A stretch of 56,579 nt of DNA from Mediterraneibacter gnavus (GTDB taxonomy: Bacteria; Pseudomonadota; Alphaproteobacteria; RF32; CAG-239): contig CAVEOB010000004.1 of assembly GCA_963617265.1 (NCBI GenBank), positions 1 to 56,579 of the forward strand. The letters are read 5' to 3'. Both the position numbers and the translations under genes were made by a program. The notes under the pieces are model-generated. The model searched no databases and was not told where the DNA came from. It was given only the letters and a program-made list of their open reading frames with translations. Positions 2,279 through 50,489 of this stretch are shown in pieces. How positions within the stretch are numbered: the first letter of the stretch is position 1; each line of letters begins with the position of its first letter.

Positions 2279-4501
2279 TTAGGCGGCGTTTTCCACCGGA
2301 CAAAGCTCTGCCAAAACTTCTTTTTTCAGCGTTACATTATCCGCCTTGCCGGTAGCAAATACCGGTAATTTTTCGTGATACAAAATCACACGCGGCAAAT
2401 AAAGCTCTGACATACCGTTGTTTTTTACATATTCATGCAGCATTGCCGAGGTAACTTTTTCATTATTGGTTACCAAAACAATCTGCTCGCCTTTACTTTC
2501 ATGCGGAATCGAAACCACGCCATAGCTGTATTCCGGTCCCATATCCTTAGTGGCGTCCATAACCATATCCTGCACGGCGTTCAGCGATACCATTTCGCCG
2601 CCGATTTTAGCAAAACGCTTGATACGGTCTTTAATGGTAAAGAAGCCGATTTCGTCCATTTCCACCACATCGCCGGTGTGATACCAGCCGTCTTCAGGCG
2701 GAACCAAGACACCAGGGTTGGACGGCATATAGTAACCCTGCATAACATTTGGACCTTTCACGCACAGCTCGCCGCCGTTGGCAATACCGTCAACTGGCAG
2801 AATCTTAAACTGCATGCCCGGCATAATTTTACCGATAGAGCCGAATTTATTGAAAATTCCATTGTTGGCGGTCATAACCGGAGAACATTCGGTTGCGCCG
2901 TAAGCTTCCATCATACGCACGCCGGAATGTTCCATCCACATACTGCGGGTGTCAGACTTGGCAGCCTCGCCGCCGGAATACATCAAGCGGATATTGTGGA
3001 AATCGTACGGGTGGGCAATTTTTGCATAACCACGCAAGAAAGTATCGGTACCAAGCATCAAAGTTGCGCCAAGCTCATAAACCAGCTCGGCAACCACACG
3101 ATAGTGCAGCGGAGACGGATACAAGAACAGCTTAGAACCTTCAAACAACGGGAACAGAGTGCCCACAGTCAAGCCAAAGCTATGGAACATCGGCAAGGCA
3201 TTAAACAGCAAATCCTTAAAGTTAATGGTTTGAATCGCCGTCATTTGCTTGATATTGGCAATGATGTTAGCATGGCTCAAAACCACGCCTTTCGGAGCGC
3301 CCTCTGAACCGGAAGTAAACAGAATAACCGCCTTTTTGTCGCCGCCTGTTTTGTGCGGAACATGCTTAATTTTATAGCTGATATAGGCACCGATTTTAGT
3401 CCACAGCGACATTTTTTTAGCAATATCTTCCAAATAAACAATATTGCAGCCGGCGTTTTTCATATCTTCTACCACGTTTTCCATTTTGGCTTTAATAATA
3501 AAAGTACGGGAAGTCAAAACGGTTTTAACCAGCGCAGTTTTGCACATGGAAATCATATTTTTAGAGCCGACAGAAAAGTTAATCATCACCGGAGTGCGGT
3601 TATAAGCCGAAAGTCCGAAAAATGTGCAAACTGTGGCAATAGCGTTCGGCAGCAAAATACCGACATTTTCATCAACCTTAGTAAACTTTTTAAAGCTGCG
3701 ACCCAAAGCAAAAGAAGCAACAATAATGTCTTTATAAGATTTTTGCTTGCGGTTGATATCTTCTATTATGCGCGGGCGTTTAGAAAAGAAACCAGTGCGG
3801 GAATATACCTTAGCGGTTTTCATCAGCTGGGCAAACAATGAAATATTTTTGTCATAGTTAATATCAAAGCACATCTCGCGCAAAATCATATATACTTCAT
3901 TGCTGATGTGGTCGCGTTGGCGGCGCAGTTCGTCTTTCAGCTTAAAGCTGCGCGGCTTGCCAACATAGATACGCATTTTCGGCAGCGGACGGTGCGGCAA
4001 TTTGCCTTTAGTCTTAGAAAAATAGCCGTATTGCGGACCGTCGATCCAAACCGGAATAATCGGAGATTTAGATTTATCGGCAACCAGCCCCGGAGCTTCA
4101 TAAATTTTCATTAAACCGCCGTTTTCAGTAATGCGTCCTTCGGCGAAAATCACCACCAAACGCCCCTCGTCCACTTTGGCAATCAGCTTTTTAATGTCTG
4201 AAGGCTCAATCGGATTAAACTTTATTACATCGGCACGCCCCATCAAAAAACTAATCCAATGACGGCGGTACAAATGACCGTTTAGGGCAAAAACCGGATT
4301 ACCAGGGAGAAATGCAAACAGCAAAATAGGGTCTAAATAAGAAACGTGGTTAACCACATAAACGCCTTTTTTAGGCAAGTTGTTCACATCAAATTCAAAA
4401 ATACATTTTGCTTTCATCAAACGCAAAACCGTTCGCAGGCAAAATCTGACAAACTCTTTCACAAGTCCAACCTTTCTGTTGTTAAATATTATCCTATCCA
4501 T
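2279..4501 (-). CDS. aas: Bifunctional acyltransferase / acyl-ACP (acyl-CoA) synthetase, Aas-like
   Basis: 740-aa fusion. N-terminal PlsC-type acyltransferase HxxxxD box (NHVSYLDP) plus a C-terminal AMP-binding domain (TSGSEGAPKGVVLSH, GWYHTGD). Confidence 0.75.
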   Translation of the reverse strand: MDRIIFNNRKVGLVKEFVRFCLRTVLRLMKAKCIFEFDVNNLPKKGVYVVNHVSYLDPILLFAFLPGNPVFALNGHLYRRHWISFLMGRADVIKFNPIEPSDIKKLIAKVDEGRLVVIFAEGRITENGGLMKIYEAPGLVADKSKSPIIPVWIDGPQYGYFSKTKGKLPHRPLPKMRIYVGKPRSFKLKDELRRQRDHISNEVYMILREMCFDINYDKNISLFAQLMKTAKVYSRTGFFSKRPRIIEDINRKQKSYKDIIVASFALGRSFKKFTKVDENVGILLPNAIATVCTFFGLSAYNRTPVMINFSVGSKNMISMCKTALVKTVLTSRTFIIKAKMENVVEDMKNAGCNIVYLEDIAKKMSLWTKIGAYISYKIKHVPHKTGGDKKAVILFTSGSEGAPKGVVLSHANIIANIKQMTAIQTINFKDLLFNALPMFHSFGLTVGTLFPLFEGSKLFLYPSPLHYRVVAELVYELGATLMLGTDTFLRGYAKIAHPYDFHNIRLMYSGGEAAKSDTRSMWMEHSGVRMMEAYGATECSPVMTANNGIFNKFGSIGKIMPGMQFKILPVDGIANGGELCVKGPNVMQGYYMPSNPGVLVPPEDGWYHTGDVVEMDEIGFFTIKDRIKRFAKIGGEMVSLNAVQDMVMDATKDMGPEYSYGVVSIPHESKGEQIVLVTNNEKVTSAMLHEYVKNNGMSELYLPRVILYHEKLPVFATGKADNVTLKKEVLAELCPVENAA

Positions 4502-8584: not shown

Positions 8585-11020
8585 TTATAAGCAACCGTGC
8601 GTTTCTTTAGCATAGTGAGCATAGTCTTTATAGTATTGACGAAGGCTCTCTTCCACTAAATAATTCACTGTTCCTTTTGGATAATTTCCTTTGTTATCAG
8701 GTTTTCCAGCCTTAACTCCGGTCAAGATTTCAATACCATCGTCTACTGTATCAATAGCATAAATGGTGAAACGCCCGTCTTCCACCGCCTGTACCACATC
8801 GGAGCGCAGCATTAAATTGTCGACATTGGTACGCGGAATAATAACGCCTTGCTTGCCGGTTAAACCATTATGAACGCAAACGTCAAAGAAACCTTCAATT
8901 TTTTCGTTTACGCCGCCGATTGGCTGAATTTCGCCAAACTGGTTGATTGAGCCGGTTACGGCAATATTCTGTTTTATCGGCAGGTTAGCAATTGCCGACA
9001 GCAGGCAGTAATATTCGGTAGAAGAAGCGCTGTCGCCGTCAACTCCGCCGTATGACTGTTCAAACACAATTGATGCCGACAAAGAAAGCGGAGAATGTTT
9101 GGCAAAGCGGTTGGCTATCAGCGATTTCAAAATCAGCACGCCTTTAGTGTGGATTGGTCCGCTCATAGAAATCTCACGTTCAATATCAATGAAATCGCCT
9201 TTACCGATACGCACCTGCGTGGTAATGCGCGCCGGCTTACCGAACGAGTAACGAGAAAAATCATAAACCACCAAGCCATTGATTTGTCCGACGTGTTCGC
9301 CTTTGACGTCCATTAAAATCGTGCCCTTGTCAATTTCTTCGAGCATGGCTTTTTTAATGCGGTCAGAACGGTAAATCTGCGCCTCTATAGCCTGGTCAAT
9401 ATGGTTTTTGCCAATTTGCTTGGAATTGGAAACTCTCGCCCAATAATCTGCCTCGCGCAGCAAATCGCCGATAGAAGAAATATGCGCGGTCAATTTGCCA
9501 GCGTCATCAGCCAAGCGTGAAGCATATTCAATAACTCTTGCCACAGCTTGACGATTGAGCGAACGCAGCTGTTTCTTTTTAGAAAGTGAGCCGATAAGTT
9601 TGGCATATTCCACCTCGTTTTCGGCATTTCTATCCATAATCATACCAAAATCCGCCTCAACTTTGAAAAAGTCGCGAAAATCCGGATCTCTTTCGCTCAA
9701 AAGCTCATAGATTTCAAAATCACCGGTCAGCACAACTTTTATATCCAAAGGAATCGGCTCGGGGTCAAGAGATATGGTTGTAAAGCTGGTTTCTTCCGAC
9801 GGAGCCTCAATCTTTACGCGCTTTGAGGCAATTGCTCGTTTCAAAGAATCCCAAGCAAAAGGCTGTTCCAAAACTTTGCGGGCATCAAGCAGCAAAAAGC
9901 CACCGTTAGCTTGGTGCAAAGCACCTGCTTTTATCAATGTAAAGTCTGTAAGCAGTGCGCCGTATTGCTGAATACGCTCAACCTTGCCGACCAAATTGCC
10001 CTGCGTCGGATAGTCGACAGTAATAATCGGAGCGCCGGAATCCGGAACATTCTTGACAATTACATTAACCTTAAATTTGGCAAACTTATCTTCTTCCGGC
10101 TGTTTCATTTTGCTTAAAAGCAGCTGCAGCGGATCTTCCTCAGCACCAGCGACGGCAGCTTGCTTGTCACTGTCGGTCGGCACAAAATCATCAATATTAT
10201 CCAAGATATTGTCTTGAATTTGCTTCAAAAATCTAGACGGCTGCTGGCTTTTATATTTTTTGCGCAAGGCATCAATCGGATCTTTTACGGCTGAACGCAC
10301 AAATTTTTCACGCAAAATTGTAATCTCGCGCTTTTGCTTTTCTTCCCAGCGCGGCAAATCCTGCGTGGCGTTTTCAATTTCTTCCTGCATGGCGTTCAAG
10401 TCGTCCATTACAAGTTTCTTTTCTTCTTCCGGAAGCTGCTCAAACGCATCAGGGCTCAAAACTTCGCCGTCTTTCATTGGAGCTACGACCAGCCCCATTT
10501 GCATATGCAGCAGCGATACGCGCTTGCCTTTAGCTTTTTTCTGCAGAACATTTATATATTCTTCTTTTTTAGCCTTATATTTTTGACGGATAATACCAAG
10601 CGCCGCCTTATATTCTTCGGACTCGATAATTTCCGGCAGCGAATCTGCCAGCTCTTCTAAAAGCTCGTCAACGTCTTTGGCGAACTCTGTCGCCTGTCCC
10701 GCCGGAAAGCTCATAGCTATCGGCTTATACGGCTCTTCAAAATTATAAACATACGCCCAATCATCAGGAGTTTTGCGGTTTTTGGCTTCTTTTTCCAAAA
10801 TACGCTTTACCAAACTGGTTTTACCGGTTCCCTCTGGTCCCAAACAAAACAGATTATAACCGCGGGATTTGATATGAATACCCAGCTCCACCGCGTGAAT
10901 CGCCCTATCCTGCCCCAAAGCGGACAAACGCTCTTCTAAATCGGCAGTAGAATTAAAATCAAACTTTGAAGGGTCGCATTTACGGTAAAGTTTATCGGAA
11001 GTTAATTTTGTAATAGCCAT
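8585..11020 (-). CDS. Lon-like AAA+ ATP-dependent protease (LonB/COG1067-type)
   Basis: 811 aa with Walker A GPEGTGKTS near the N-terminus. C-terminal Lon proteolytic domain has the Ser context GGVDGDSASS and a downstream Lys. No LonA-type N-domain. Confidence 0.82.
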   Translation of the reverse strand: MAITKLTSDKLYRKCDPSKFDFNSTADLEERLSALGQDRAIHAVELGIHIKSRGYNLFCLGPEGTGKTSLVKRILEKEAKNRKTPDDWAYVYNFEEPYKPIAMSFPAGQATEFAKDVDELLEELADSLPEIIESEEYKAALGIIRQKYKAKKEEYINVLQKKAKGKRVSLLHMQMGLVVAPMKDGEVLSPDAFEQLPEEEKKLVMDDLNAMQEEIENATQDLPRWEEKQKREITILREKFVRSAVKDPIDALRKKYKSQQPSRFLKQIQDNILDNIDDFVPTDSDKQAAVAGAEEDPLQLLLSKMKQPEEDKFAKFKVNVIVKNVPDSGAPIITVDYPTQGNLVGKVERIQQYGALLTDFTLIKAGALHQANGGFLLLDARKVLEQPFAWDSLKRAIASKRVKIEAPSEETSFTTISLDPEPIPLDIKVVLTGDFEIYELLSERDPDFRDFFKVEADFGMIMDRNAENEVEYAKLIGSLSKKKQLRSLNRQAVARVIEYASRLADDAGKLTAHISSIGDLLREADYWARVSNSKQIGKNHIDQAIEAQIYRSDRIKKAMLEEIDKGTILMDVKGEHVGQINGLVVYDFSRYSFGKPARITTQVRIGKGDFIDIEREISMSGPIHTKGVLILKSLIANRFAKHSPLSLSASIVFEQSYGGVDGDSASSTEYYCLLSAIANLPIKQNIAVTGSINQFGEIQPIGGVNEKIEGFFDVCVHNGLTGKQGVIIPRTNVDNLMLRSDVVQAVEDGRFTIYAIDTVDDGIEILTGVKAGKPDNKGNYPKGTVNYLVEESLRQYYKDYAHYAKETHGCL

Positions 11021-14123: not shown

Positions 14124-16283
14124 ATGAAAAATACCGGATTGATTGCATTGGTTGCCTTAGGCGTTATGCTGCTGGTTGCCGTAAAATTTAATTTGATGCC
14201 TAGCTTAAAAACATCATTATATGATGAAGACGGCTATGTTGATTCTTTAGAGACAAAACATGAAAATGGCGTGCAGAAAGATTATTATCAAAACGGCAAT
14301 ATTAAAACCGAAACTCCTTATAAAAACAACAAAATCGACGGCGTGCTGACCTCTTATTACGCCAATGGAAATGTTAAGTCGGAATCTAATTACGTTGCCG
14401 GAAATCAAGAAGGCGAAACTAAAACCTATTATAAAGACGGCGGATTAGAAAAAATTTACACTTACCGCAACGGACAGCTGAACGGACCGGTTAAAGCCTA
14501 TGATAAAAACGGCAAATTGGAATCTACCGCCGAATTTAAAAATAACGAGCAATTCGGCACCGAAACAGGCTATTACCCAAGCGGCAAAGTTAAATATGTG
14601 CTGAATATGAATGAAAACGGCAAAATCGACGGCAAACTCATTCAATATTTTGAAAACGGCAAAATTTCATCGGAAACTCCGTATACCAATGGTTCTGTAG
14701 AAGGAACCGAACAGGTTTATTATGAAAACGGCGAACTAAAAGAACTGAACAACTTTGTCAACAATCTGTATGACGGAGTGCAGAAAACCTATTTTGACAA
14801 CGGCGTTCTTTATGCCGAAGCAAACTATACTGCCGGCGTGCTGCAGGGCGTAACCAAAACTTATTATCCCAACAAGCAGCTGGAAGAATATTTGATCTTT
14901 GCCGACAATATGCGCAACGGCATTTATAAAAAATATTTTGATAACGGCAAATTGCAAAATGAAATCAACTTTAGCAATGACCAGCCAAATGGTTTGATGA
15001 AAACTTATTTCAGAAACGGCAATCTTTATTCGGAACTGCCGTATGTTGACGGTGTTATAGAAGGTCAGGCAAAAATGTATTATGAAAACGGCAAAAAGAA
15101 ATCCGTTGCCGATTTTGCCGATAACAAGCTGAACGGGCACGATGTCGGATTTTATCAGAATGGTAAAATGATGTATGACATCATGTATAAAGACGGCGTG
15201 ATGAACGGCAAGTCTGTTGAATATTTTGACAACGGAAATATAGCGCGCACCGCCAATTATTTAAACGGAGAATTGAACGGCGAAGTTATATCATATAACA
15301 AAAACGGCACAAAAGCCGCACAAACTTATATGACTAACGGCAAAATTTCGGGCAAAGTTATAACCTATAAAGCCGATGGCAAAACCGTTAATGAAGAGCT
15401 GAACTTTACCGACAACACCCTTAACGGAATTGTTAAAAAGAAAGATGCCTTCGGTAACACCGCGGTTGAAGCGTTGTTTAAAAATGGTCAGTTTGCCGGA
15501 ACAGAAACCGGCTATTATGAAAACGGCACGGTTAAATATGTGCTGAAAACAGAAAACGGCGAACTTTCGGGCAGCCAGCTGCAATATGATGCTAACGGCA
15601 AACCGAAAACCGACAATATGAACGGCACGCTTGAACTATTTTATGAAAGCGGCGCTAAAATGGCGGATATTCCTTATAAAAATGGTGTGCAAGACGGCGT
15701 GATTAAAACATATTTTGAAGATAACAAAGCTGTTAATGAAGTAACCGAAGTTAAAAACGGCAAACGCGACGGCAGCTATATTGAATATGACGCAAACGGC
15801 AAAAAAATTACCGATGCCACCTACAAAAACGGCGAACTTAACGGATATTTGCGGCTTTATTACGACAACGAACAGCTCATGGCTCAAGTTCCATATAAAA
15901 ACGGCGTTATAAGCGGCGAAGCTGCGGCGTTTGACCAACAAGGAAACAAAGTTTACAGCATGCGCTTTGCCGGCAACAAATTGGAAGGCGCCCGCACTGC
16001 CTACTATTCTGACGGCAAAGTAAAATATGTTAAAAACTACAAAGCCGGAATTTGGGACGGAAAATCATATAAAGAATATGATGAAAATGGTCAATTAACT
16101 TATGATGTAAGCGACGATGGTTTAAGCACTACTTATCGTAAAAACAATGGCTCCGGAACTATGGTTAAAATGTCGGACGCTGAGAAATCAGAATTACTGA
16201 AACGCATTGATAACCGCGAGGAAGAAAAACAAGATTTGAAAATGCTTTCTGACTTAAAACCTCAGGTGGAACCTCTGTTTTAG
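14124..16283 (+). CDS. MORN-repeat (YwqK-like) protein, membrane anchored
   Basis: 719 aa. N-terminal TM helix followed by more than 25 tandem ~23-aa units of the form YYxNGxxKxExxYxxGxxxG. Confidence 0.75.
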   Translation: MKNTGLIALVALGVMLLVAVKFNLMPSLKTSLYDEDGYVDSLETKHENGVQKDYYQNGNIKTETPYKNNKIDGVLTSYYANGNVKSESNYVAGNQEGETKTYYKDGGLEKIYTYRNGQLNGPVKAYDKNGKLESTAEFKNNEQFGTETGYYPSGKVKYVLNMNENGKIDGKLIQYFENGKISSETPYTNGSVEGTEQVYYENGELKELNNFVNNLYDGVQKTYFDNGVLYAEANYTAGVLQGVTKTYYPNKQLEEYLIFADNMRNGIYKKYFDNGKLQNEINFSNDQPNGLMKTYFRNGNLYSELPYVDGVIEGQAKMYYENGKKKSVADFADNKLNGHDVGFYQNGKMMYDIMYKDGVMNGKSVEYFDNGNIARTANYLNGELNGEVISYNKNGTKAAQTYMTNGKISGKVITYKADGKTVNEELNFTDNTLNGIVKKKDAFGNTAVEALFKNGQFAGTETGYYENGTVKYVLKTENGELSGSQLQYDANGKPKTDNMNGTLELFYESGAKMADIPYKNGVQDGVIKTYFEDNKAVNEVTEVKNGKRDGSYIEYDANGKKITDATYKNGELNGYLRLYYDNEQLMAQVPYKNGVISGEAAAFDQQGNKVYSMRFAGNKLEGARTAYYSDGKVKYVKNYKAGIWDGKSYKEYDENGQLTYDVSDDGLSTTYRKNNGSGTMVKMSDAEKSELLKRIDNREEEKQDLKMLSDLKPQVEPLF

Positions 16284-17364: not shown

Positions 17365-18402
17365 TTAACGTCCATTGGCCAACACCAGGATTAAATCGCA
17401 TCTTTGCTTGGAGCATACTCCGCATCTGGCAGCAATAACAGACAAATCAAACGGTTCACAGTGCATATCTTTGGCATAGTTGTCAGGAGCAGACTTTCCG
17501 CAAACAGTCAAAATACCGCCGCTTCGGCCGGTTATGCCCTCATTTAGCACAACAGCCCACGAATCGTCATATTCTGATTGTAAATAAAACATTTCTTTGC
17601 AAGTTTCTACCGCATTTGTATCCGGCAACGTCCAAAATCGTAAAAATAATCGTGACCCAATATTGCTGTTTGGTGGAGTAAAAGAATATATCTGCCAAGA
17701 ATTTCCAAACATATCTTTATTTTGCTCATCTAGCATATTTTGCGGAATAATTCCAATATCTTTATAAACATTCATCATCATTTGGTTATCGGTATTTGTA
17801 TAACTTTTTTCATTCATATACATAATCTTCAGATTTGATGTAAGAGTTACAATGTTTTCTTTCCAGCGATTTAATTTAAACTTCTGCATGGCTTTGGAGT
17901 AACCGGCAAGGCCACCGACACTCAGCACTGCGATTATTGCCAGCACGCCCAGCATTTCTATCATTGAACGGCCGTACTGCACTTGACTGTCAACATCATA
18001 CTTATCGCCACACTCCGCTGGCTGTGGCAGACGAGTATCCATGACTTTGTTGCTATAAGCAACGCTACTTTCTTCTCTCGCCACCAGAGAGAACATGCGT
18101 CCCCTGCACCAGTCATTCTCGGATTTATTCCGAGAATCTTCTCTCAACCAGTACTTATGCAACAATAAAGCTAATTTATTGACTAGGTTAGAGACTTGTT
18201 GCCAGAAGATTCTAGGCACGGGGCCTAGAATGACTGGTGCCAGAGGCGCGGGTTTTGTGCTTGTTGTAATGTTTTTGATACCCCTCACCCGACACTTTGT
18301 GTCGACCTCTCCCGCAAGGGGCGAGGTTACAGGATTACATCGCTTCGCTCGCACTAACGAGGGCGAGGTTTTAAATTTATCTGACTTTGAATTATTTTTC
18401 AT
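17365..18402 (-). CDS. Type IV pilin/pseudopilin-like protein with a 143-codon open 5' extension
   Basis: G-RSMIEMLGVLAIIAVLSVGG, with the Gly codon at 17973..17971, Glu at +5 and a hydrophobic helix, is a prepilin cleavage/methylation-type motif. C-terminal Cys pairs are present. The ATG at 18402 has AGGAAG 5 nt upstream. The mature part (17365..17970) is confident; translation of the extension is not. Confidence 0.6.
   Translation of the reverse strand: MKNNSKSDKFKTSPSLVRAKRCNPVTSPLAGEVDTKCRVRGIKNITTSTKPAPLAPVILGPVPRIFWQQVSNLVNKLALLLHKYWLREDSRNKSENDWCRGRMFSLVAREESSVAYSNKVMDTRLPQPAECGDKYDVDSQVQYGRSMIEMLGVLAIIAVLSVGGLAGYSKAMQKFKLNRWKENIVTLTSNLKIMYMNEKSYTNTDNQMMMNVYKDIGIIPQNMLDEQNKDMFGNSWQIYSFTPPNSNIGSRLFLRFWTLPDTNAVETCKEMFYLQSEYDDSWAVVLNEGITGRSGGILTVCGKSAPDNYAKDMHCEPFDLSVIAARCGVCSKQRCDLILVLANGR
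18107..18239. repeat. Inverted pair of REP-like hairpin modules inside the pilin-like 5' extension
   Basis: caccagtcattct-[cggatttattccg]-agaatcttc (18107-18141) and its inverse gaagattct-[aggcacggggcct]-agaatgactggtg (18205-18239). The arms are identical; the hairpin tops differ but both stay self-complementary. Confidence 0.8.
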
Positions 18403-18592
18403 TTCAACTTCCTTTCGTTTAGAATTACAACAAAAAAGCCGCTTGATGAGAGCGACCGGAAGTTGAGAACTATTGCTTATAAGTATAGTGTAGCATATTA
18501 GCGTATAGCCTATTTTGCTACCTTCCGATCAATAGACCAGAAGGTATTTAACGTCAAATGTTTGACGTATAAGCAAGAGGTTCTCACACCCC
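18403..18592 (-). promoter_or_regulatory. Structured 5' leader, copy A (paralogue of 50224-50440), with terminator
   Basis: Block-wise similarity to copy B, covarying helices, identical CUC/UA internal loop, identical CUCAUCA terminator loop and complementarity to the downstream SD. See findings. Confidence 0.6.
18432..18457 (-). terminator. Intrinsic terminator inside leader A
   Basis: Minus strand: GUCGCU-CUCAUCA-AGCGGC followed by U6, about 30 nt upstream of the ATG at 18402. Confidence 0.7.
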
Positions 18593-18649
18593 AGACAGAC
18601 TATCATCTATCCGTAGTAAGGTTACTAAAATATTCTGCAAAAGTAAAGT

Positions 18650-44897: not shown

Positions 44898-46532
44898 TTA
44901 GTCATACCAATCGTAATAATAAGTATTTCCATCATCGTTAGGCTTTGCTTGACCGTTCCAACTTGGTTTTTGGATACTAAAATTATACATAGTACAATTA
45001 CAAGCTCCTGGTCCACCACATGCACCTGAATATTCTTTCCAGCATGAACCTACACCACTGCTACTTCCACTAGAAATAGTCGCAGAACCTTGGAATTGAT
45101 AACTTCCATTATCTTCATAACCCTCACCCAAGTGGTCATCAATCCTCCAACAATCTACATCTCCTTCGTAAAAAACAGTGATATCCTCTTTTACTGGTTG
45201 ATCAGATATTAACTTCAGACAATGACCAGTTGTGCCATCAACAATTCCATCGACATACTCCCAATCAATCGATATATGGACTTCTTTATTAGTTGAAGAC
45301 GGAGATTCACTGCCGCATTGCTCGCCGCCTTTTAACGGAATTTGCAAAGTAGCTTCACTGTTGACAACGGTATAGCCGGCTGCCTTAGCTTTTTCAATCA
45401 TGCAGCTTTTACGCTCAGCGTCGTCCGCCGCATCTTTTGCACATTCGGTATCAGCGACAAAATATTCCGCATTCGGCATAAAGAAGTCTTCACCTGTGCT
45501 TTCATCTTTCAGCAGGTGGATAGCAACATCTGCATCGCTTACAAAAACACTATCCTCCTTGTCAAAATCGAAATCATGATATTTTAATTCATAGGTTTCA
45601 ACCCCTGCTACATTGCAAGCGTCATTGTCATATTTTCCGGTGTCGGCATTCTTGCGTCCGCAGTCATCACCGGCTTTTGTGCAGGTATACGGATTAGTGC
45701 TATCAACTAAGTTTTCGGACAGACCCCACAAAAGTTCTTTTCCAATACTTTCAAAATTATTCCACAATGTTTTAGGAATAACTGTTCCACTGATATTGTT
45801 GTTAACGTTGCTGCCAGTACCGTTACCATAGAACATATATTTTATCTTACCTGTAACATCGCTTGGACAAGTCCCGCCGTTGCAGGTATATTTAAATTTA
45901 AAGGTTATAGTGGTAGGTTCGCTATTCGTTTCACAGATTCCGCACTTGTTGCTGTATCCGTCAACTTTATCGCCAAGCACAAACGTTTCACCGGTTTTAC
46001 AGTTTGCAGCTGTTTGCAAACCGCCCATTTGCGAGCAGGCTAATTTTTCACAAGTACCGCATACGCCATCACTACCGGTTTCGCCATTGTCTTTGAATCC
46101 TAAATATTCTTTGCCGCAGCCAGTTGTTTTTGATATATATCCCTTATCTTTGCAGGTTGGATCAGCCACCAACTTATAGCAATTGCCGCAAACCAAACAT
46201 TTAGAATTAACTTGAGCGTTTTTGGCTGCAGTTTTGCATTCACTTATACTGCCATAGATGCCGTTGCTATGGTTTAGATCTGTGTCGCATTTAATATACC
46301 AGCATAATTTGTTGTCGTTTTGATAGGCTTTTTCACAAGTTTTATCTTTTATTTTAGCTTCTGCTGCTTCTTGGGAGTTATATTGGCAACAGGTTGTGCA
46401 AACAGGAGGCTCAGAAGGTTTGCCCATTCCGCAATCTTTTGAGTCCGGTAAAAAACACACCCTTGCAAAAACCGGAGTCGCAGCCATGCATAAAACCCCG
46501 ATAAAACACAATTTATTCAATAATTTAAACAT
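44898..46532 (-). CDS. Large Cys-rich secreted protein of unknown function
   Basis: 544 aa with signal peptide MFKLLNKLCFIGVLCMAATPVFA. Many Cys residues occur in short spacings (CTTCCQ, CLVCGNC, CGTCEKLAC, CGICE, CGGPGACNC). Strong SD GGGAGGA. Confidence 0.7.
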   Translation of the reverse strand: MFKLLNKLCFIGVLCMAATPVFARVCFLPDSKDCGMGKPSEPPVCTTCCQYNSQEAAEAKIKDKTCEKAYQNDNKLCWYIKCDTDLNHSNGIYGSISECKTAAKNAQVNSKCLVCGNCYKLVADPTCKDKGYISKTTGCGKEYLGFKDNGETGSDGVCGTCEKLACSQMGGLQTAANCKTGETFVLGDKVDGYSNKCGICETNSEPTTITFKFKYTCNGGTCPSDVTGKIKYMFYGNGTGSNVNNNISGTVIPKTLWNNFESIGKELLWGLSENLVDSTNPYTCTKAGDDCGRKNADTGKYDNDACNVAGVETYELKYHDFDFDKEDSVFVSDADVAIHLLKDESTGEDFFMPNAEYFVADTECAKDAADDAERKSCMIEKAKAAGYTVVNSEATLQIPLKGGEQCGSESPSSTNKEVHISIDWEYVDGIVDGTTGHCLKLISDQPVKEDITVFYEGDVDCWRIDDHLGEGYEDNGSYQFQGSATISSGSSSGVGSCWKEYSGACGGPGACNCTMYNFSIQKPSWNGQAKPNDDGNTYYYDWYD

Positions 46533-46550
46533 AATACGATCCTCCCTGCT

Positions 46551-46735
46551 GTGTAAAAAAAACGACCGTTATTTTTACACACTAAAAAGGCTATTTTTGT
46601 AATATTACGAAATATTTCAGAATTATGAAGAAAATTGAGCAATCTTAAATAGTTATTGCAAAAAAATCGTAAAATATTGTATACTAAAAGTATTAGAGGT
46701 AAAGTGTGTAAAAATAACGGTCGTTTTTTTTACAC
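46551..46735. promoter_or_regulatory. Candidate invertible promoter element (inverton): 32-bp perfect inverted repeats flanking 121 bp
   Basis: IR-L at 46551-46582 (gtgtaaaaaaaacgaccgttatttttacacac) is the exact reverse complement of IR-R at 46704-46735. Confidence 0.5.
46656..46685 (+). promoter_or_regulatory. Sigma-70-like promoter inside the IR-flanked segment, pointing away from the Cys-rich gene
   Basis: TTGCAA (46656-46661), 18-nt spacer, TATACT (46680-46685). It currently faces the 3' end of a convergent gene. Confidence 0.45.
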
Positions 46736-46759
46736 ACTTTTTTCACAAAAATGAAGCTA

Positions 46760-48325
46760 TTATTTAGATAGCGAATACACCGCTTTTAAGCCGTCTGCCG
46801 CAGCCGAGGTTATACCGCCGGCATAGCCGGCGCCCTCGCCGCAAGGATACAGCCCTTTGACATTGCTTTGCATGGTTTCATCACGCACTATCCTCACTGG
46901 CGAAGAACTGCGGGTTTCAACTCCGGTCAAAACCGCGTCATAGCAATCAAATCCGTGCAATTTTTTAGCCATTTCCACAATACCCAGCCGCAAAGAATCC
47001 GCTATTTCTTCCGGCAGAACCTGTTTAAATCCGCCTAAAGCCACCCCCGGAAGATAGGACGGACGCACCTCGCCTAACTTTTGTGAAACTTTGCGCCGCA
47101 AGAAATCTCCGACCAAAACCGCCGGCGCGCGATATGATTTGTCACCGGCAATAAAAGCGTTTTCCTCTAATTTACGCTGAAAATACATACCAGCCAGCGG
47201 ATTGCTGCTACCAAAATCTTTTTCGGAAACACCAACCAGCAAAGCCGAATTAGCATTCTCAGCCGCGCGGGCAAACTCGCTCATACCGTTTGTCACGACA
47301 CGTCCTTTTTCGGAAGCAGCCGCCACAACCACACCGCCCGGACACATGCAAAACGTATATACCGAGCGTCCGTTGGGCAAATGCACCGCCATTTTATAGT
47401 CAGCCGCGCCCAAATACGGGCTTTCCGCCGCTTTGCCGTACTGCGCTTTATTTATCAGGGTTTGTTTGTGTTCAATTCTAGCGCCGACTGAAAACGATTT
47501 TTGCTCCATGTGCACGCCTGAATTATACAGCATCTCAAAAGTATCGCGCGCGCTGTGACCGATAGCCAAAAACAGCTTGTTTGCTGGCAATTCATAAGTT
47601 TCTTTTTCGTTCGTAATTTTAATTGCAGCAAGTTTATCGTTTTTGATAACAAGTCCGGTTAACTGACTGTTAAAACGATATTCTCCGCCCAAAGACAGTA
47701 TTTTTTGCCGAATATTTTTAACAACCAAACGCAGTTTATCCGTACCAATATGCGGCTTTGCCAAATAAAGAATTTCTTGAGGAGCTCCGGCGGCGGCAAA
47801 TTCTTGCAAAACTTTAGCGGTGAACTTGTCTTTTTTGATGCCTGTCATCAGCTTGCCGTCCGAAAAAGTACCAGCACCGCCCTCTCCGAACTGCACGTTG
47901 GAATTGGCTTTAAGCTCGCCGCCCTGCCAAAACGCCGCCACATCTTTTTGACGCTGCTCCACTGGCGCGCCGCGCTCCAAAATAATCGGGTTCAAACCGG
48001 CTTCAGCCAAAGCAAGACCAGCAAACATACCGGCTGGACCGCTGCCAACCACAATTGGACGCACGCCGTCAGCCTTGAGGTTAAACGTTAGTTTTTCCAC
48101 TTCCGGCAGCTGCTCAATATCTTTGTCACGCACTGTTGAAACCGCATTGCAATCCACGCTGTATACAAAATGCACATTGTTTTTGCTGCGCGCGTCAACC
48201 GATTTTTTGGATACGGCGAAATTTTGGAGTTCTGTTTCTTTAACCCCCAATTTTTGCGCGGCTTTTTGTTTGAGCTGCTGTTCGCTTGCGTTCAGCGGCA
48301 TAGAAATATTGTTAATGCGTAACAT
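46760..48325 (-). CDS. FAD-dependent oxidoreductase (COG2509-type NAD(FAD)-utilising dehydrogenase)
   Basis: 521 aa with dinucleotide-binding fingerprint VVGSGPAGMFAGLALAEAG and conserved C-terminal GEGAGYAGGI. Confidence 0.8.
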   Translation of the reverse strand: MLRINNISMPLNASEQQLKQKAAQKLGVKETELQNFAVSKKSVDARSKNNVHFVYSVDCNAVSTVRDKDIEQLPEVEKLTFNLKADGVRPIVVGSGPAGMFAGLALAEAGLNPIILERGAPVEQRQKDVAAFWQGGELKANSNVQFGEGGAGTFSDGKLMTGIKKDKFTAKVLQEFAAAGAPQEILYLAKPHIGTDKLRLVVKNIRQKILSLGGEYRFNSQLTGLVIKNDKLAAIKITNEKETYELPANKLFLAIGHSARDTFEMLYNSGVHMEQKSFSVGARIEHKQTLINKAQYGKAAESPYLGAADYKMAVHLPNGRSVYTFCMCPGGVVVAAASEKGRVVTNGMSEFARAAENANSALLVGVSEKDFGSSNPLAGMYFQRKLEENAFIAGDKSYRAPAVLVGDFLRRKVSQKLGEVRPSYLPGVALGGFKQVLPEEIADSLRLGIVEMAKKLHGFDCYDAVLTGVETRSSSPVRIVRDETMQSNVKGLYPCGEGAGYAGGITSAAADGLKAVYSLSK

Positions 48326-48820: not shown

Positions 48821-48909
48821 GGAGCGTTGGCAGAGTGGTAATGCAGCGGATTGCTAATCCGTCATCCCCTTAAAAGGATGCACAGGTTCGAGTCCTGTAC
48901 GCTCCGCCA
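48821..48909 (+). tRNA. tRNA-Ser (anticodon GCU), CCA encoded
   Basis: Hand-folded cloverleaf: acceptor GGAGCGU/ACGCUCC, 3-bp D stem, anticodon arm GCGGA-UUGCUAA-UCCGU, long variable arm CAUCC...GGAUG, T arm ACAGG-UUCGAGU-CCUGU, discriminator G and CCA. Confidence 0.93.
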
Positions 48910-48949
48910 ATAAAACCCCATAGGGTCTGTCCCTGTGGGGTTTTGTTGT
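48891..48949 (+). repeat. Direct repeat copy 1 (tRNA-Ser 3' end plus terminator)
   Basis: 59 bp, agtcctgtacgctccgccaataaaaccccatagggtctgtccctgtggggttttgttgt, repeated at 49118-49176 with one mismatch. Confidence 0.9.
48912..48944 (+). terminator. Intrinsic terminator after tRNA-Ser
   Basis: AAAACCCCAUAGGG-UCUGU-CCCUGUGGGGUUUU hairpin followed by a U run. Confidence 0.8.
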
Positions 48950-49117: not shown

Positions 49118-49176
49118 AGTCCTGTACGCTCTGCCAATAAAACCCCATAGGGTCTGTCCCTGTGGGGTTTTGTTGT
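49118..49176 (+). repeat. Direct repeat copy 2 (att-like duplicate of the tRNA-Ser 3' end plus terminator)
   Basis: 58/59 identical to 48891-48949 (C to T in the acceptor arm). The copies are separated by 168 bp. Confidence 0.9.
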
Positions 49177-49203: not shown

Positions 49204-50223
49204 CTAAATTTTACCATATATTTTGCGGTATATTTTCAGCCAAAATGCTAAACGGGAAAAATCACCGCTCAAAAACATTTTACATAAGAATCGGTTAAAC
49301 AAGCTTAGTTCTGTCGGGAAAAACACCTTTTGCGCCGCTAAATCCAAGCAGATTTGCCGATATTTATGCCAATAGCTTTGATAATCAGCGTTTTTGAAAT
49401 ACGGATACGAACAGCATTGCCTAAAAATTATTCTCGAAAAATTTTTCTTCATCAGTTCATAACTTTTTATGTCTTCCATTGCCGCAAAATGCGTCATTAT
49501 TTTTTGAGCCAGCAAAATATGGTCGTTAATTTCTCGCTCCGAAAACTTTTGATGTGTCAAACTGCTTTCTGTCTGCCGGTAGAACATAAGCTTTTCTTTT
49601 ACGCATACTGATTTTTTTACTCGTTCAAACACTAAAAATGAGTAATAATAATCTTCAGCCATTTGTTTAAAATCCGCCGAAAAGTACAAGTCTTTTAAAA
49701 TTTCCCGCTTATACAATTTTCCCCAAACTGCTATTTGCAGCTTGGGCTTTTGTTTTTTAATATAGTGTAAAAATAAATTACTGCCGTCCTGCAGCGAACA
49801 GCTATTGCTTTTTATTATCAGGTTTTTACGCTTTTTCTCTTTTAAGCACCAAGCCATATCGCTATTTGTTTTTTCCAGCGCAGTTGTCATATATTCCATA
49901 AACTGGCAATGCAGCATATCGTCCGCATCTAAAAAAGCGATATAATCACCTTGGGCTTTTTGCAAAGCCGCGTTACGCACTGCCGAAACACCGGAATTTT
50001 TTTGATTTATAAGCACAAAACGACTGTCTTTTGCCGCATACTCCTGCAAAATTTGCCAAGAACTGTCTGCCGAGCCATCATTGACGCAGATAGCTTCCCA
50101 ATAAGGATATGTCTGCGCCTGCAAGCTGTCTAAACACAAGGCTAAATATTTTTCTGCATTATAAACGGGAACAATCACCGAAACCAGTTTGCCGGAGCTG
50201 TTTTCTTTGGATTTTATTTTCAT
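49204..50223 (-). CDS. Family 2 glycosyltransferase
   Basis: VSVIVPVYNAEKYLALCLDSLQAQTY and a DADD motif (DxD). The ATG at 50223 (MKIKSK) is preceded by GGAG, and the ATG at 50235 lies inside that SD. Confidence 0.85.
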   Translation of the reverse strand: MKIKSKENSSGKLVSVIVPVYNAEKYLALCLDSLQAQTYPYWEAICVNDGSADSSWQILQEYAAKDSRFVLINQKNSGVSAVRNAALQKAQGDYIAFLDADDMLHCQFMEYMTTALEKTNSDMAWCLKEKKRKNLIIKSNSCSLQDGSNLFLHYIKKQKPKLQIAVWGKLYKREILKDLYFSADFKQMAEDYYYSFLVFERVKKSVCVKEKLMFYRQTESSLTHQKFSEREINDHILLAQKIMTHFAAMEDIKSYELMKKNFSRIIFRQCCSYPYFKNADYQSYWHKYRQICLDLAAQKVFFPTELSLFNRFLCKMFLSGDFSRLAFWLKIYRKIYGKI

Positions 50224-50230
50224 CACTTTC

Positions 50231-50255
50231 TCCATTAGAGGGTTCTAAACCCCAC
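50231..50255. repeat. 25-bp direct repeat, RBS-proximal copy
   Basis: tccattagagggttctaaaccccac; 24/25 identical to 50411-50435. Overlaps the SD (GGAG) of the glycosyltransferase gene. Confidence 0.9.
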
Positions 50256-50283
50256 AAAAAAAGCCGCCTTGATGAGAGGCAGC
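50256..50283 (-). terminator. Intrinsic terminator inside leader B
   Basis: Minus strand: GCUGCCU-CUCAUCA-AGGCGGC followed by U7, about 30 nt upstream of the glycosyltransferase start. Confidence 0.7.
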
Positions 50284-50410
50284 AGGAAGTTAGAACCTAT
50301 AATGGAAATAGTGTAGTGTATTTGGCGTAAGAGCAAGCTCCTACGCCTTATTAACCACCTTCCTGCTCTGACGCAACAAGGTAGTTTTTCTCATCTGGAA
50401 AAACCAGCTA

Positions 50411-50435
50411 TCCATTAGAGGGTTCTAAACCTCAC
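50411..50435. repeat. 25-bp direct repeat, leader-5' copy
   Basis: tccattagagggttctaaacctcac. Forms the 5' strand of the outer helix of leader B. Confidence 0.9.
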
Positions 50436-50460
50436 ACCGGTAATCAGCCGATGCAATTTA

Positions 50461-50489
50461 AAGCTAGAAAATTTACTAAATAAAGTCAA
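50461..50489 (-). promoter_or_regulatory. Possible promoter of leader B
   Basis: Minus strand: TTGACT, 17-nt spacer, TAGCTT, about 15 nt upstream of the conserved GGUGUGAG block. Confidence 0.4.

Follow-up and report, generated by a model that had tools for sequence, protein, structure and literature searches.

A family of C4-like leader RNAs upstream of cell-surface genes in uncultured gut Alphaproteobacteria

The C4 antisense RNA of phages P1 and P7 (Rfam family RF01695) has three stems, two hairpins inside an outer one, and a single-stranded linker leads to the strand that closes the outer stem. Its segments a′ and b′ are complementary both to a2b2, a site over the ribosome-binding site (RBS) of the following open reading frame (ORF), and to a1b1, a copy of that site further upstream. 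Release of an RNA of ~77 nt from the leader by RNase P and action in trans also characterise C4. The elements of phage P1 are annotated in the order promoters, a1, b1, c4, a2, b2 (over the icd RBS) and icd; b′ forms the loop of hairpin 2 of c4, and a′ its linker. The c4 RNA blocks translation through pairing around the RBS (PMC12197685), and a1b1 has been proposed to compete with a2b2 (Weinberg et al. 2010; PMC2864571). Several C4 RNAs have a terminator that overlaps the outer stem in its 3′ half, so that C4 may at times work in cis (PMC2864571, Additional file 1). The integron- and island-borne C4 relatives of Xanthomonas and Xylella, sRNA-Xcc1 (RF02221), are 87-nt stand-alone small RNAs (sRNAs), and Xylella genomes carry sRNA-Xcc1, C4 and isrK annotations side by side, in multiple copies (PMC12189769). 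C4-type RNAs have so far been known mainly as phage immunity antisense RNAs and orphan island sRNAs. A leader of another kind, the c-di-GMP-II riboswitch that controls pilA1 of Clostridioides difficile, is likewise a structured RNA with a terminator before a type IV pilin gene of a gut bacterium; its sequence and fold are unrelated to the RNAs described below, and our Rfam scans returned no GEMM match.

Here we describe a family of leader RNAs recognised from two copies, A and B, on the minus strand of contig CAVEOB010000004.1 (assembly GCA_963617265.1, Mediterraneibacter gnavus; GTDB lineage Alphaproteobacteria, RF32, CAG-239), the whole 56,579 nt of which we call the window. Among the members we observed two alternative folds, covariation, a promoter, a terminator, complementarity to the RBS and association with a set of genes. 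Like C4, the leaders can adopt an outer stem that encloses two hairpins and an unpaired linker, contain an upstream decoy that pairs with the antisense segments, and follow the order promoter, decoy, core, target, gene; in copy B and in part of the family, the loop of the second hairpin and the linker are complementary to the RBS as well. The best match in sequence and structure is sRNA-Xcc1, with which the leaders share a first hairpin with AAUA, a second hairpin of the form GCCGU..ACGGU, the linker UUUGCNAAC and presence in multiple copies per genome. We conclude that the leaders are a real, previously uncatalogued cis-regulatory family and a variant of the C4-type antisense/attenuator design; our literature searches found no prior description of the leader.

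Leader copies A and B and their relatives

The original prediction had aligned the leader of a pilin-like gene (copy A) with that of a glycosyltransferase gene (copy B). Pairwise alignment of the two gave 75% mean column identity, and the blocks named as shared, GGUGUGAG, ACCUU, GGAAGGU(A/G)G and CUACACUAU, were all present in both on the minus strand, as was a final block that reads GUUCUCAACUUCC in A and GUUCUAACUUCC in B. The pattern GGAAGGTRG, 15-45 nt and CTACACTAT occurred twice in the window and not once in 100 shuffles, with 0 expected. A covariance model, R1, comprising 73 non-redundant members and 189 positions, scored 145.2 bits at 18434-18614 (copy A) and 154.4 bits at 50260-50455 (copy B). 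Together with the folds, it places the whole RNA of copy A at ~18403-18614, from the predicted 5′ end at a hairpin, P0, to the base preceding the ATG, and that of copy B at ~50236-50455. The proposed extent was thus right in taking the region for a leader and wrong about its start: the RNA begins ~22 nt further upstream, a P0 hairpin and promoter having been missed. Compared with dinucleotide shuffles, the leader folds had z scores of -7.16 (A) and -6.29 (B), or -6.98 and -6.58 when the RBS was included.

Upstream of 174 distinct members lies a conserved -35 element (TTGAC(T/A) or CTTTAC), an A-rich stretch and a -10 element (TA..NT) that ends ~6-7 nt before P0. The corresponding putative promoters span 18619-18647 in copy A (-35 TTTACT, 18642-18647; -10 TAACCT, 18619-18624) and 50461-50489 in copy B (-35 TTGACT, 50484-50489; -10 TAGCTT, 50461-50466). 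A strict sigma-70 consensus scan of the window detected neither of them; recognised through their conservation among members, they are probably of the sigma-70 type. Since the conserved -35/-10 pair sits directly upstream, P0 is most likely the 5′ end of the transcript. In copy A it is a hairpin at 18593-18612 (GGAUAG, loop AUGAUAGU, CUGUCU), for which relatives carry the compensatory variants GGACAG/CUGUCC, AGAUAG/CUAUUU and GGAUAA/UUAUCU; in copy B it lies at 50435-50453 (CAUCGG, CUGAUUA, CCGGUG), and the stem covaries in type B leaders. Part of block GGUGUGAG is the 3′ strand of P0, and the remainder (GAGG/GGGG) pairs with CUUC of a downstream AACUUCC.

One intrinsic terminator was found in each copy by a terminator scan, as had been claimed: seven pairs in each, the identical loop CTCATCA and a tract of U6-7. 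That of copy A (GGUCGCU, CUCAUCA, AGCGGCU and the U run) spans 18432-18457, with the hairpin at 18437-18457 and the T run at 18432-18437; that of copy B spans 50256-50283, with the hairpin at 50263-50283 followed by T7. The identity of the loops is a subtype feature: type B conserves this loop, and most type A members vary in it. A kissing contact between the P0 loop (UGAUNA) and the terminator loop (UN′AUCA) of type B is suggested, and only suggested, by matched combinations G-C (14/14), A-U (11/11) and U-A (2/2), the commonest combination (30/66) having a U-C mismatch. Pairing of the P0 loop of type A (AUAGU) with ACUAU in CUACACUAU as a pseudoknot was rejected, for type C leaders keep AUAGU and have GCCGU in place of ACUAU.

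The expectation of further homologues was borne out. A scan of metagenome contigs from gut and rumen with a three-block pattern found at least 120 stretches, of which ~106 were true members by nhmmer and 12 were chance matches, and the same pattern found at least 116 stretches in GTDB species genomes. R1 matched 97 times in the metagenome loci and 105 times in loci from metagenome-assembled genomes (MAGs), these loci being themselves lower bounds, and it also recovered divergent copies that do not fit the search pattern. In all, more than 200 further copies lie in gut and rumen metagenomes and MAGs of uncultured Alphaproteobacteria. Nearly all the MAG records are labelled uncultured Alphaproteobacteria or Proteobacteria, with few otherwise, and they come from human (Hadza, Nepal and others), horse, rabbit, buffalo and rumen sources. 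Several MAGs carry at least 5-9 copies each.

Copy A precedes the pilin-like minus-strand ORF 17365-18402 and copy B the glycosyltransferase (GT2) gene 49204-50235; the neighbours of the leaders in the window are housekeeping genes. Across the family, 103 of the 163 leaders followed by a complete ORF (~63%) are followed by genes for type IV pilin-like proteins, which carry the prepilin motif G/RSMIEMLGVLAII. The other downstream products are 50 non-redundant proteins, which include outer-membrane protein (OMP) beta-barrels (Opacity, OmpA-like, porin, OmpW), lipoproteins, SHOCT-domain and zinc-ribbon membrane proteins, glycosyltransferases (GT2, GT1, RgpF), DUF805, a BspA-type leucine-rich repeat protein and a sulfatase-family enzyme, among others. 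We conclude that the genes behind the leaders form a cell-surface regulon. Leaders have the orientation of the downstream gene, and the end of the model match, at the terminator U tract, lies a median of 32 nt from the start codon. This gap leaves no room for a second promoter, and transcription of the genes must hence rely on read-through.

In the contig of a close relative, whose pilin is 77% identical (241 aa), the leader of copy A lies 29 nt before the pilin start. Among more distant pilin homologues (L004-L006, 50-54% identity) the leader is absent, and a segment flanked by inverted repeats is found instead. The pilin gene with leader A adjoins a gene for a flavin adenine dinucleotide (FAD)-dependent protein in the close relative (L001-L003). 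In the window that gene (46760-48325) is ~28 kb from the pilin gene, and from this difference in position we conclude that the window and the close relative are rearranged around the leader-bearing gene. A search with the exact sequence of the ChpT protein encoded in the window had no match. At one MAG locus (L186, 3474-3912, minus strand; CAKQLP01) two complete promoter-plus-leader units (3728-3912 and 3474-3663) stand in tandem before a single lipoprotein gene, such that the first unit precedes the second and not an ORF.

Closed and open folds

From 5′ to 3′, the closed fold consists of P0, a Shine-Dalgarno (SD)-like GAGG/GGGG that pairs with CUUC of AACUUCC, P1a, a CUC/UA internal loop, P1b, P2, P3 (UACCUUC...GGAAGGUA), the P4 arm, the 3′ strands of P1b and P1a, AACUUCC and the terminator. 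P1, P2, P3 and P4 meet in a four-way junction, with P1 extending over ~20 bp. The CUC/UA loop between P1a and P1b is invariant, and compensatory changes around it, proposed from copies A and B, are present in the minimum-energy folds of both. The P4 arm is closed by GUAG(Y):(R)CUAC (P4x) and has AAUA on either strand of an internal loop. In copy A the P1 5′ strand, a decoy like a1b1, lies at 18569-18592 (GGGG as SD mimic, P1a GAGAAC, loop CUC, P1b UUGCUUAU) and P3 at 18519-18546 (UACCUUCUGGUC ... GAUCGGAAGGUA), both assigned from covariation, and P2 at 18551-18568, from fold and covariation. The P1 3′ strand (AUAAGCAA-UA-GUUCUC), which with the anti-SD AACUUCC makes up the antisense segment, was placed at 18458-18480 from the fold. 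For copy B, fold and covariation place the P1 5′ strand (GAGG, UUAGAACC, CUC, UAAUGGA), again an a1b1-like decoy, at 50411-50433 and P3 (CUACCUUGUUGC ... GCAGGAAGGUGG) at 50355-50384.

Covariation, claimed from two copies, was strong in a model-based alignment of 95 distinct sequences compared with 500 shuffles and with structures slid by 1-3 columns. Paired cells amounted to 84.7% in the closed fold and 72.0% in shuffled alignments, and double-change cells to 703 and 222, respectively; none of the 500 shuffles reached either observed value, and the slid controls were 39-57% paired. Compensatory pairs occur in P1a, P1b, P2, P3 and the terminator, with P3 98.1% paired and changed on both sides at six pairs, and with double changes in 7/7 pairs of the terminator stem; P4, and P0 of type A, are aligned imperfectly in the model alignments. 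In some type A members an additional pseudoknot joins the P2 loop to the strand that immediately precedes P3 (own partners 4.63, permuted 4.11 ± 0.07). Neither a start codon nor a reading frame persists in the alignment from type A to type B, and an AUG in the J4/1 strand of type A is ACA in type B; for this lack of a conserved ORF, a leader-peptide attenuator was rejected.

CGGAAG had been proposed to pair either upstream with UACCUUC or downstream with CUUCCG, and both pairings are possible. The second belongs to the best-supported helix of all (98.9% paired), an antiterminator formed by the P3 3′ strand NNNNGGAAG with CUUCCNNNN, that is, the anti-SD and the 5′ arm of the terminator, so that the alternative pairing of an attenuator type was likewise upheld. 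The helix has 84 double-change cells, compared with 24 in shuffled alignments and 24-54% pairing in slid controls, and its variants include CUGGAAG/CUUCCAG, GCAGGAAG/CUUCCUGC, AUCGGAAG/CUUCCGGU and GUAGGAAG/CUUCCUAC. As in an attenuator, a GC-rich hairpin followed by a U tract is overlapped in its 5′ arm by the antiterminator. When the antiterminator was forced, the RNA folded into a three-way junction of the antiterminator, P4x/P4 and a hairpin H2 (CUAU...AUAG, with the P1b 3′ strand in its loop), preceded by a 5′ hairpin H1 (GAGG...CCUC, with the P1a 5′ strand in its loop). In constrained folds the closed and antiterminated structures were mutually exclusive.

This open fold contains a C4-like core, placed from covariation and constrained folds at 18453-18531 in copy A (antiterminator GAUCGGAAG:CUUCCGGUC, P4x/P4 GUAGCA...UGCUAC, H2 CUAU...AUAG, linker GUUCUCA) and at 50280-50368 in copy B (antiterminator AGCAGGAAG:CUUCCUGCU, P4x/P4, H2, linker GGUUCUAA). 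When the core was aligned by itself (78 sequences), pairing reached 99.0% in the antiterminator, 97.7% in P4x and 99.7% in H2, with compensatory changes. Because the search pattern had fixed several blocks, we inspected copies that were found by the model alone. Three type C leaders, each before a pilin (L057:2104-2294, L001:6312-6520 and L154:4839-5038), have paired changes: GGAAG to GGAUG with CUUCC to CAUCC, GUAGCA/UGCUAC to UCGGCU/GGCCGA, CUAU/AUAG to CCGU/ACGG and GAGG/CCUC to AGGG/CCCU. The upstream strand able to extend P3 is also altered in type C, to GCCGA, and one of the two tandem leaders mentioned above (L186:3474-3663) carries CUAC/GUAG and GUGGUA/UACCAC. GUAG has two possible partners, a (C)UAC upstream, with which it makes P3 longer, and a CUAC downstream, with which it forms P4x, stacked on the antiterminator; variation is compatible with both. 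In silico, and leaving pseudoknots and co-transcriptional kinetics out of the comparison, the closed fold beats the antiterminated fold by ~10 kcal/mol as polymerase reaches the terminator and is favoured by 14-17 kcal/mol in the finished leader.

The third partner of the antisense segment is the RBS. In copy A the RBS AAAGGAAGUUGA and ATG of the pilin-like ORF lie at 18400-18415; as predicted, UCAACUUCC is complementary to GGAAGUUGA at 18404-18412 and is paired with it in the computed fold. The RBS region of the GT2 gene (50230-50251) resembles a2b2 in that 21 nt of the P1 5′ strand of copy B (GGUUUAGAACCCUCUAAUGGA, 50411-50431) are repeated there, at 50231-50251, and together with the G that follows the repeat they make up the SD GGAG. 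Once the RBS is included, the fold of minimum energy shifts the P1 3′ strand and AACUUCC from the decoy onto the RBS, and the terminator hairpin then sits at the tip. The SD AAAGGAAGUU accompanies the leader: GGAAGUU is in the RBS of 69 of 133 members, and only 3 of 49 RBS regions in the window contain GGAAG, that of gene A being one. For the 47 members with other SDs, mostly GGAG, the complementarity of the RBS to the P1 3′ strand of the same leader was 8.19, compared with 7.42 ± 0.20 for permuted pairs (0/500). For copy A and the majority of type A members, the SD partner is AACUUCC of the outer-stem strand and not the H2 loop and linker; the latter two are complementary to the RBS in members of the GGAG type and, in the most extreme form, in copy B with its 21 nt. 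A mobile-element target-site duplication was considered for the 21-nt repeat and rejected, since the downstream copy decays in three close relatives (L008, L025 and L027); the decayed copies keep their complementarity to the P1 3′ strand around the SD.

Comparison with known RNAs and possible modes of action

At gathering thresholds, Rfam 15 finds only one tRNA in the window, and the absence of the leaders from Rfam stands in the sense that no family reaches its gathering score on either copy. The further claim that they match no known class does not stand, given that the antiterminated fold has the architecture of C4 antisense RNA and sRNA-Xcc1 and that five members have sub-threshold matches. 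Those to sRNA-Xcc1 score 39.7 bits (L153; E 0.0016 in a 56-kb search), 31.0 (L057), 30.1, 29.0 and 27.1 bits, and the best sub-threshold match to C4 scores 23.2 bits; all of these matches are on the same sub-region, the core, and on the correct strand. In the Rfam alignments the outer stem corresponds to the antiterminator, hairpin 1 with its AAUA to P4x/P4, hairpin 2 to H2, and the linker to the 3′ strand of P1a. The upstream decoy of the a1b1 type is also present, in that the P1 5′ strand pairs with the same segments and P1a and P1b covary strongly, and the 21-nt repeat of copy B parallels the decoy/target duplicate of C4 systems.

The leaders differ from C4 in several respects. Decoy and antisense form a long duplex (~20 bp) with strong covariation; the outer stem has an additional partner for its 5′ half, the 5′ strand of P3, which creates the competing four-way junction; P0 and P2 are present, and the terminator is universal; and the SD pairs mainly with AACUUCC, a strand of the outer stem, and not with a′/b′. 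In contrast to the stand-alone sRNA-Xcc1, the leader is ~190 nt long and immediately precedes a gene, and both the closed fold that competes with its core and the separate terminator are peculiar to it. With riboswitch, T-box and attenuator platforms the leaders share four segments that pair 1:2, 2:3 and 3:4 before a U tract, here the P3 5′ strand, the P3 3′ strand, CUUCC with the terminator 5′ arm, and the terminator 3′ arm, to which sequestration of the SD is added. Unlike those platforms, they have no known aptamer, specifier or T-box elements or conserved leader peptide. Possible likenesses of AAGGUAGC and ACCUCUU to the 16S 3′ end, of GGAAGGTAGC to the RfaH ops element, and to the 11-nt tetraloop receptor were considered and set aside.

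We favour, with a probability of roughly 0.6, the reading that the leaders are cis-acting RNA switches with their own promoter and a C4-type antisense core set within an attenuator. The leader would be the 5′ part of the mRNA of its gene, and the antisense segment (P1 3′ strand and AACUUCC) would choose among three partners: the upstream decoy (P1 5′ strand with GAGG/GGGG), the P3 3′ strand and the downstream RBS. In the closed fold the terminator would form and transcription would stop after ~190 nt, and in read-through molecules in the closed state the antisense segment could shift onto the RBS. In the open fold the P3 3′ strand, pairing with CUUCC and the terminator 5′ arm, would act as antiterminator and allow read-through; for the major class, with the SD GGAAGUU, the anti-SD would then be locked in the antiterminator, and the RBS hence free. 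For this class we infer that closed is OFF and open is ON, and the computed energies suggest that the closed fold would be the default. Relative to C4, the scheme would contain two additions, namely competition of the P3 5′ strand for the outer stem and a terminator that forms when the core is not in its C4-like state. The analogy with P1 c4 suggests that the switch could be flipped by RNA-RNA competition of decoy and target for the antisense loops; leader RNAs, once processed or terminated, might take part in trans, and a small-molecule ligand would be unnecessary. Processing, a protein recognising the AAUA/AAUA loop or a ligand are other candidate drivers of the open fold.

Several points weigh against this reading. 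Searched at E <= 10, copies A and B themselves returned nothing relevant from Rfam and no match to C4 or sRNA-Xcc1, and the matches of other members stay below the gathering scores of 53 (sRNA-Xcc1) and 45 (C4). A model of the open fold, run against 4 kb of P1, had its best match on the annotated c4, with the same topology, at a score that was not significant (6.3 bits, E 1.4). The leaders are chromosomal, multi-copy and placed before surface-protein genes, and not before prophage icd/ant as C4 is. GGAAGGT, CTACACTAT and ACTTCC are invariant through the design of the search pattern, and their conservation is hence no independent evidence. With the open fold ~10 kcal/mol less stable at the decision point, the switch requires a driver. 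Finally, where the RBS of a member matches the H2 loop and linker, the open fold leaves both of these exposed, which makes the OFF/ON sign ambiguous. Since scores and genomic context fall outside those of RF01695 and RF02221, and the main SD partner differs, we have not filed the leaders under either family.

Different explanations would place the control elsewhere. If the four-way junction of P1b, P2, P3 and P4 were the aptamer of a classical riboswitch, a small molecule or ion tied to the state of the envelope or surface, for example a second messenger, would shift the balance of terminator and antiterminator on binding. The junction is indeed complex and well conserved, with an unpaired GUWAAA, A-rich joining strands and an AAUA that all three types (A, B and C) keep on each strand of the P4 arm; an optional pseudoknot of the P2 loop with J2/3 and a terminator/antiterminator platform exist, and multiple copies per genome precede functionally related genes. 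We nevertheless regard a riboswitch of this kind as unlikely. Its P1 of ~20 bp is far beyond that of usual aptamers, the closed fold wins by 10-17 kcal/mol ligand-free, and the most conserved 'unpaired' blocks (GAGG, CCUC, CUAC, CUAU and AUAG) are explained by compensatory alternative pairings. The sRNA-Xcc1 consensus contains the AAUA hairpin too, the controlled genes share no metabolite, and Rfam 15 scans of both copies and 26 other loci, by gathering threshold and by E-value, matched no known riboswitch model. A protein might instead select the fold, through the AAUA/AAUA loop or the repeated motifs resembling SD and anti-SD; an antiterminator, a chaperone like Hfq or ProQ, a GGA binder like CsrA and a specialised NusG paralogue are candidates. 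A regulon of pili, OMPs and polysaccharide resembles those of the RfaH/UpxY type, which speaks for such a protein, as do the GGA elements (GAGG, GGAAGG, AGGAAG) and the AAUA...AAUA loop, which is kept in three subtypes with its strands swapped between types A and B and would suit a stand-alone recognition module. In the same direction, sRNA-Xcc1 and IsrK are described as Hfq-associated (PMC12189769; PMC12197685). Yet no protein is consistently encoded beside the leaders in the gene tables of the loci, no candidate emerged, and an explicit, covarying antiterminator needs no protein, so that we think protein-dependent attenuation a decidedly doubtful explanation.

The units could also be independent sRNA genes, the ~190-nt terminated transcript acting only in trans, with AACUUCC on GGAAGUU RBSs, or they could belong to a mobile promoter-leader cassette whose spread, and not cis control, put them before genes. 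C4 and sRNA-Xcc1 are described as trans-acting (PMC12197685, PMC12189769), every unit has its own promoter and terminator, genomes contain many copies, and the first tandem unit at L186 precedes another unit instead of an ORF; moreover, the match of anti-SD and SD is a property of the whole family and not of single members (own 7.50, permuted 7.36). We consider these possibilities very improbable. Nearly all units lie a median of ~32 nt before a start codon on the same strand with no room for a promoter, a conserved antiterminator would be pointless for the terminator of a constitutive sRNA, member-specific complementarity to the RBS exists, and the 21-nt repeat of copy B is not a conserved target-site duplication.

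More speculatively, and in our view with a rather small chance of being right, P1a and P1b could constitute a code specific to each pilin or OMP paralogue, with processed or terminated C4-like RNAs acting in trans on matching nascent leaders in a gene-specific RNA 'lock and key' network, or the leaders could be a new riboswitch class that senses a ligand. In such a network, a trans RNA on the decoy would promote antitermination and one on the RBS would repress translation; expression of surface paralogues could then be bistable or mutually exclusive, an RNA-based phase or antigenic variation of uncultured gut Alphaproteobacteria. Under the favoured C4-type attenuator, the design would have been recruited many times per genome for pilins, outer-membrane proteins and surface-sugar enzymes, and the cis action through an overlapping terminator that was a side remark in 2010 would have a clear case. 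The hosts are widespread, so far uncultured Alphaproteobacteria of human and animal guts, in which the leader offers a defined element for studying surface regulation. The leader alignment is a ready seed for a new Rfam family, and decoy/target competition could be reused in RNA engineering.

Other sequence features of the window

The pilin domain of ORF 17365-18402 starts only at ~residue 140 (profile match), with a predicted cleavage motif, G/RSMIEML, at ~residue 155. The N-terminal ~140 codons (17980-18402) keep the frame open through palindromic repeats: an inverted repeat at 18092-18152 and 18194-18254 and a further element at ~18290-18370. The residues before the cleavage motif number ~155 in this ORF, ~38 in one relative (P0002) and 6-12 in other relatives. 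Similar in-frame extensions derived from repeats occur in the family members L039, L189 and L057 and are reminiscent of RPE-type insertions.

A perfect 34-nt inverted repeat (46550-46583 and 46703-46736) surrounds a 119-nt segment directly upstream of the minus-strand gene 44898-46532, whose product (544 aa) is Cys-rich and secreted-looking. The same inverted repeat, with a similar spacer, stands before pilin-like genes in L004 (~9536-9720) and L006 (~445-625). The segment looks like an invertible promoter; no inversion was seen in L004 and L006, as both orientations match relative to that gene. Beside the GT2 gene that carries leader B, a direct repeat of 59 nt with 98% identity (48891-48949 and, starting 227 nt later, 49118-49176) comprises the 3′ end of a tRNA (48821-48906) and a downstream hairpin, and it may be a remnant of integration at the tRNA. 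Finally, 14124-16283 encodes a 719-aa protein that consists almost wholly of MORN-type repeats (repeat families D1-D5); its gene adjoins nagB and slyX, an arrangement conserved in the relative L001.

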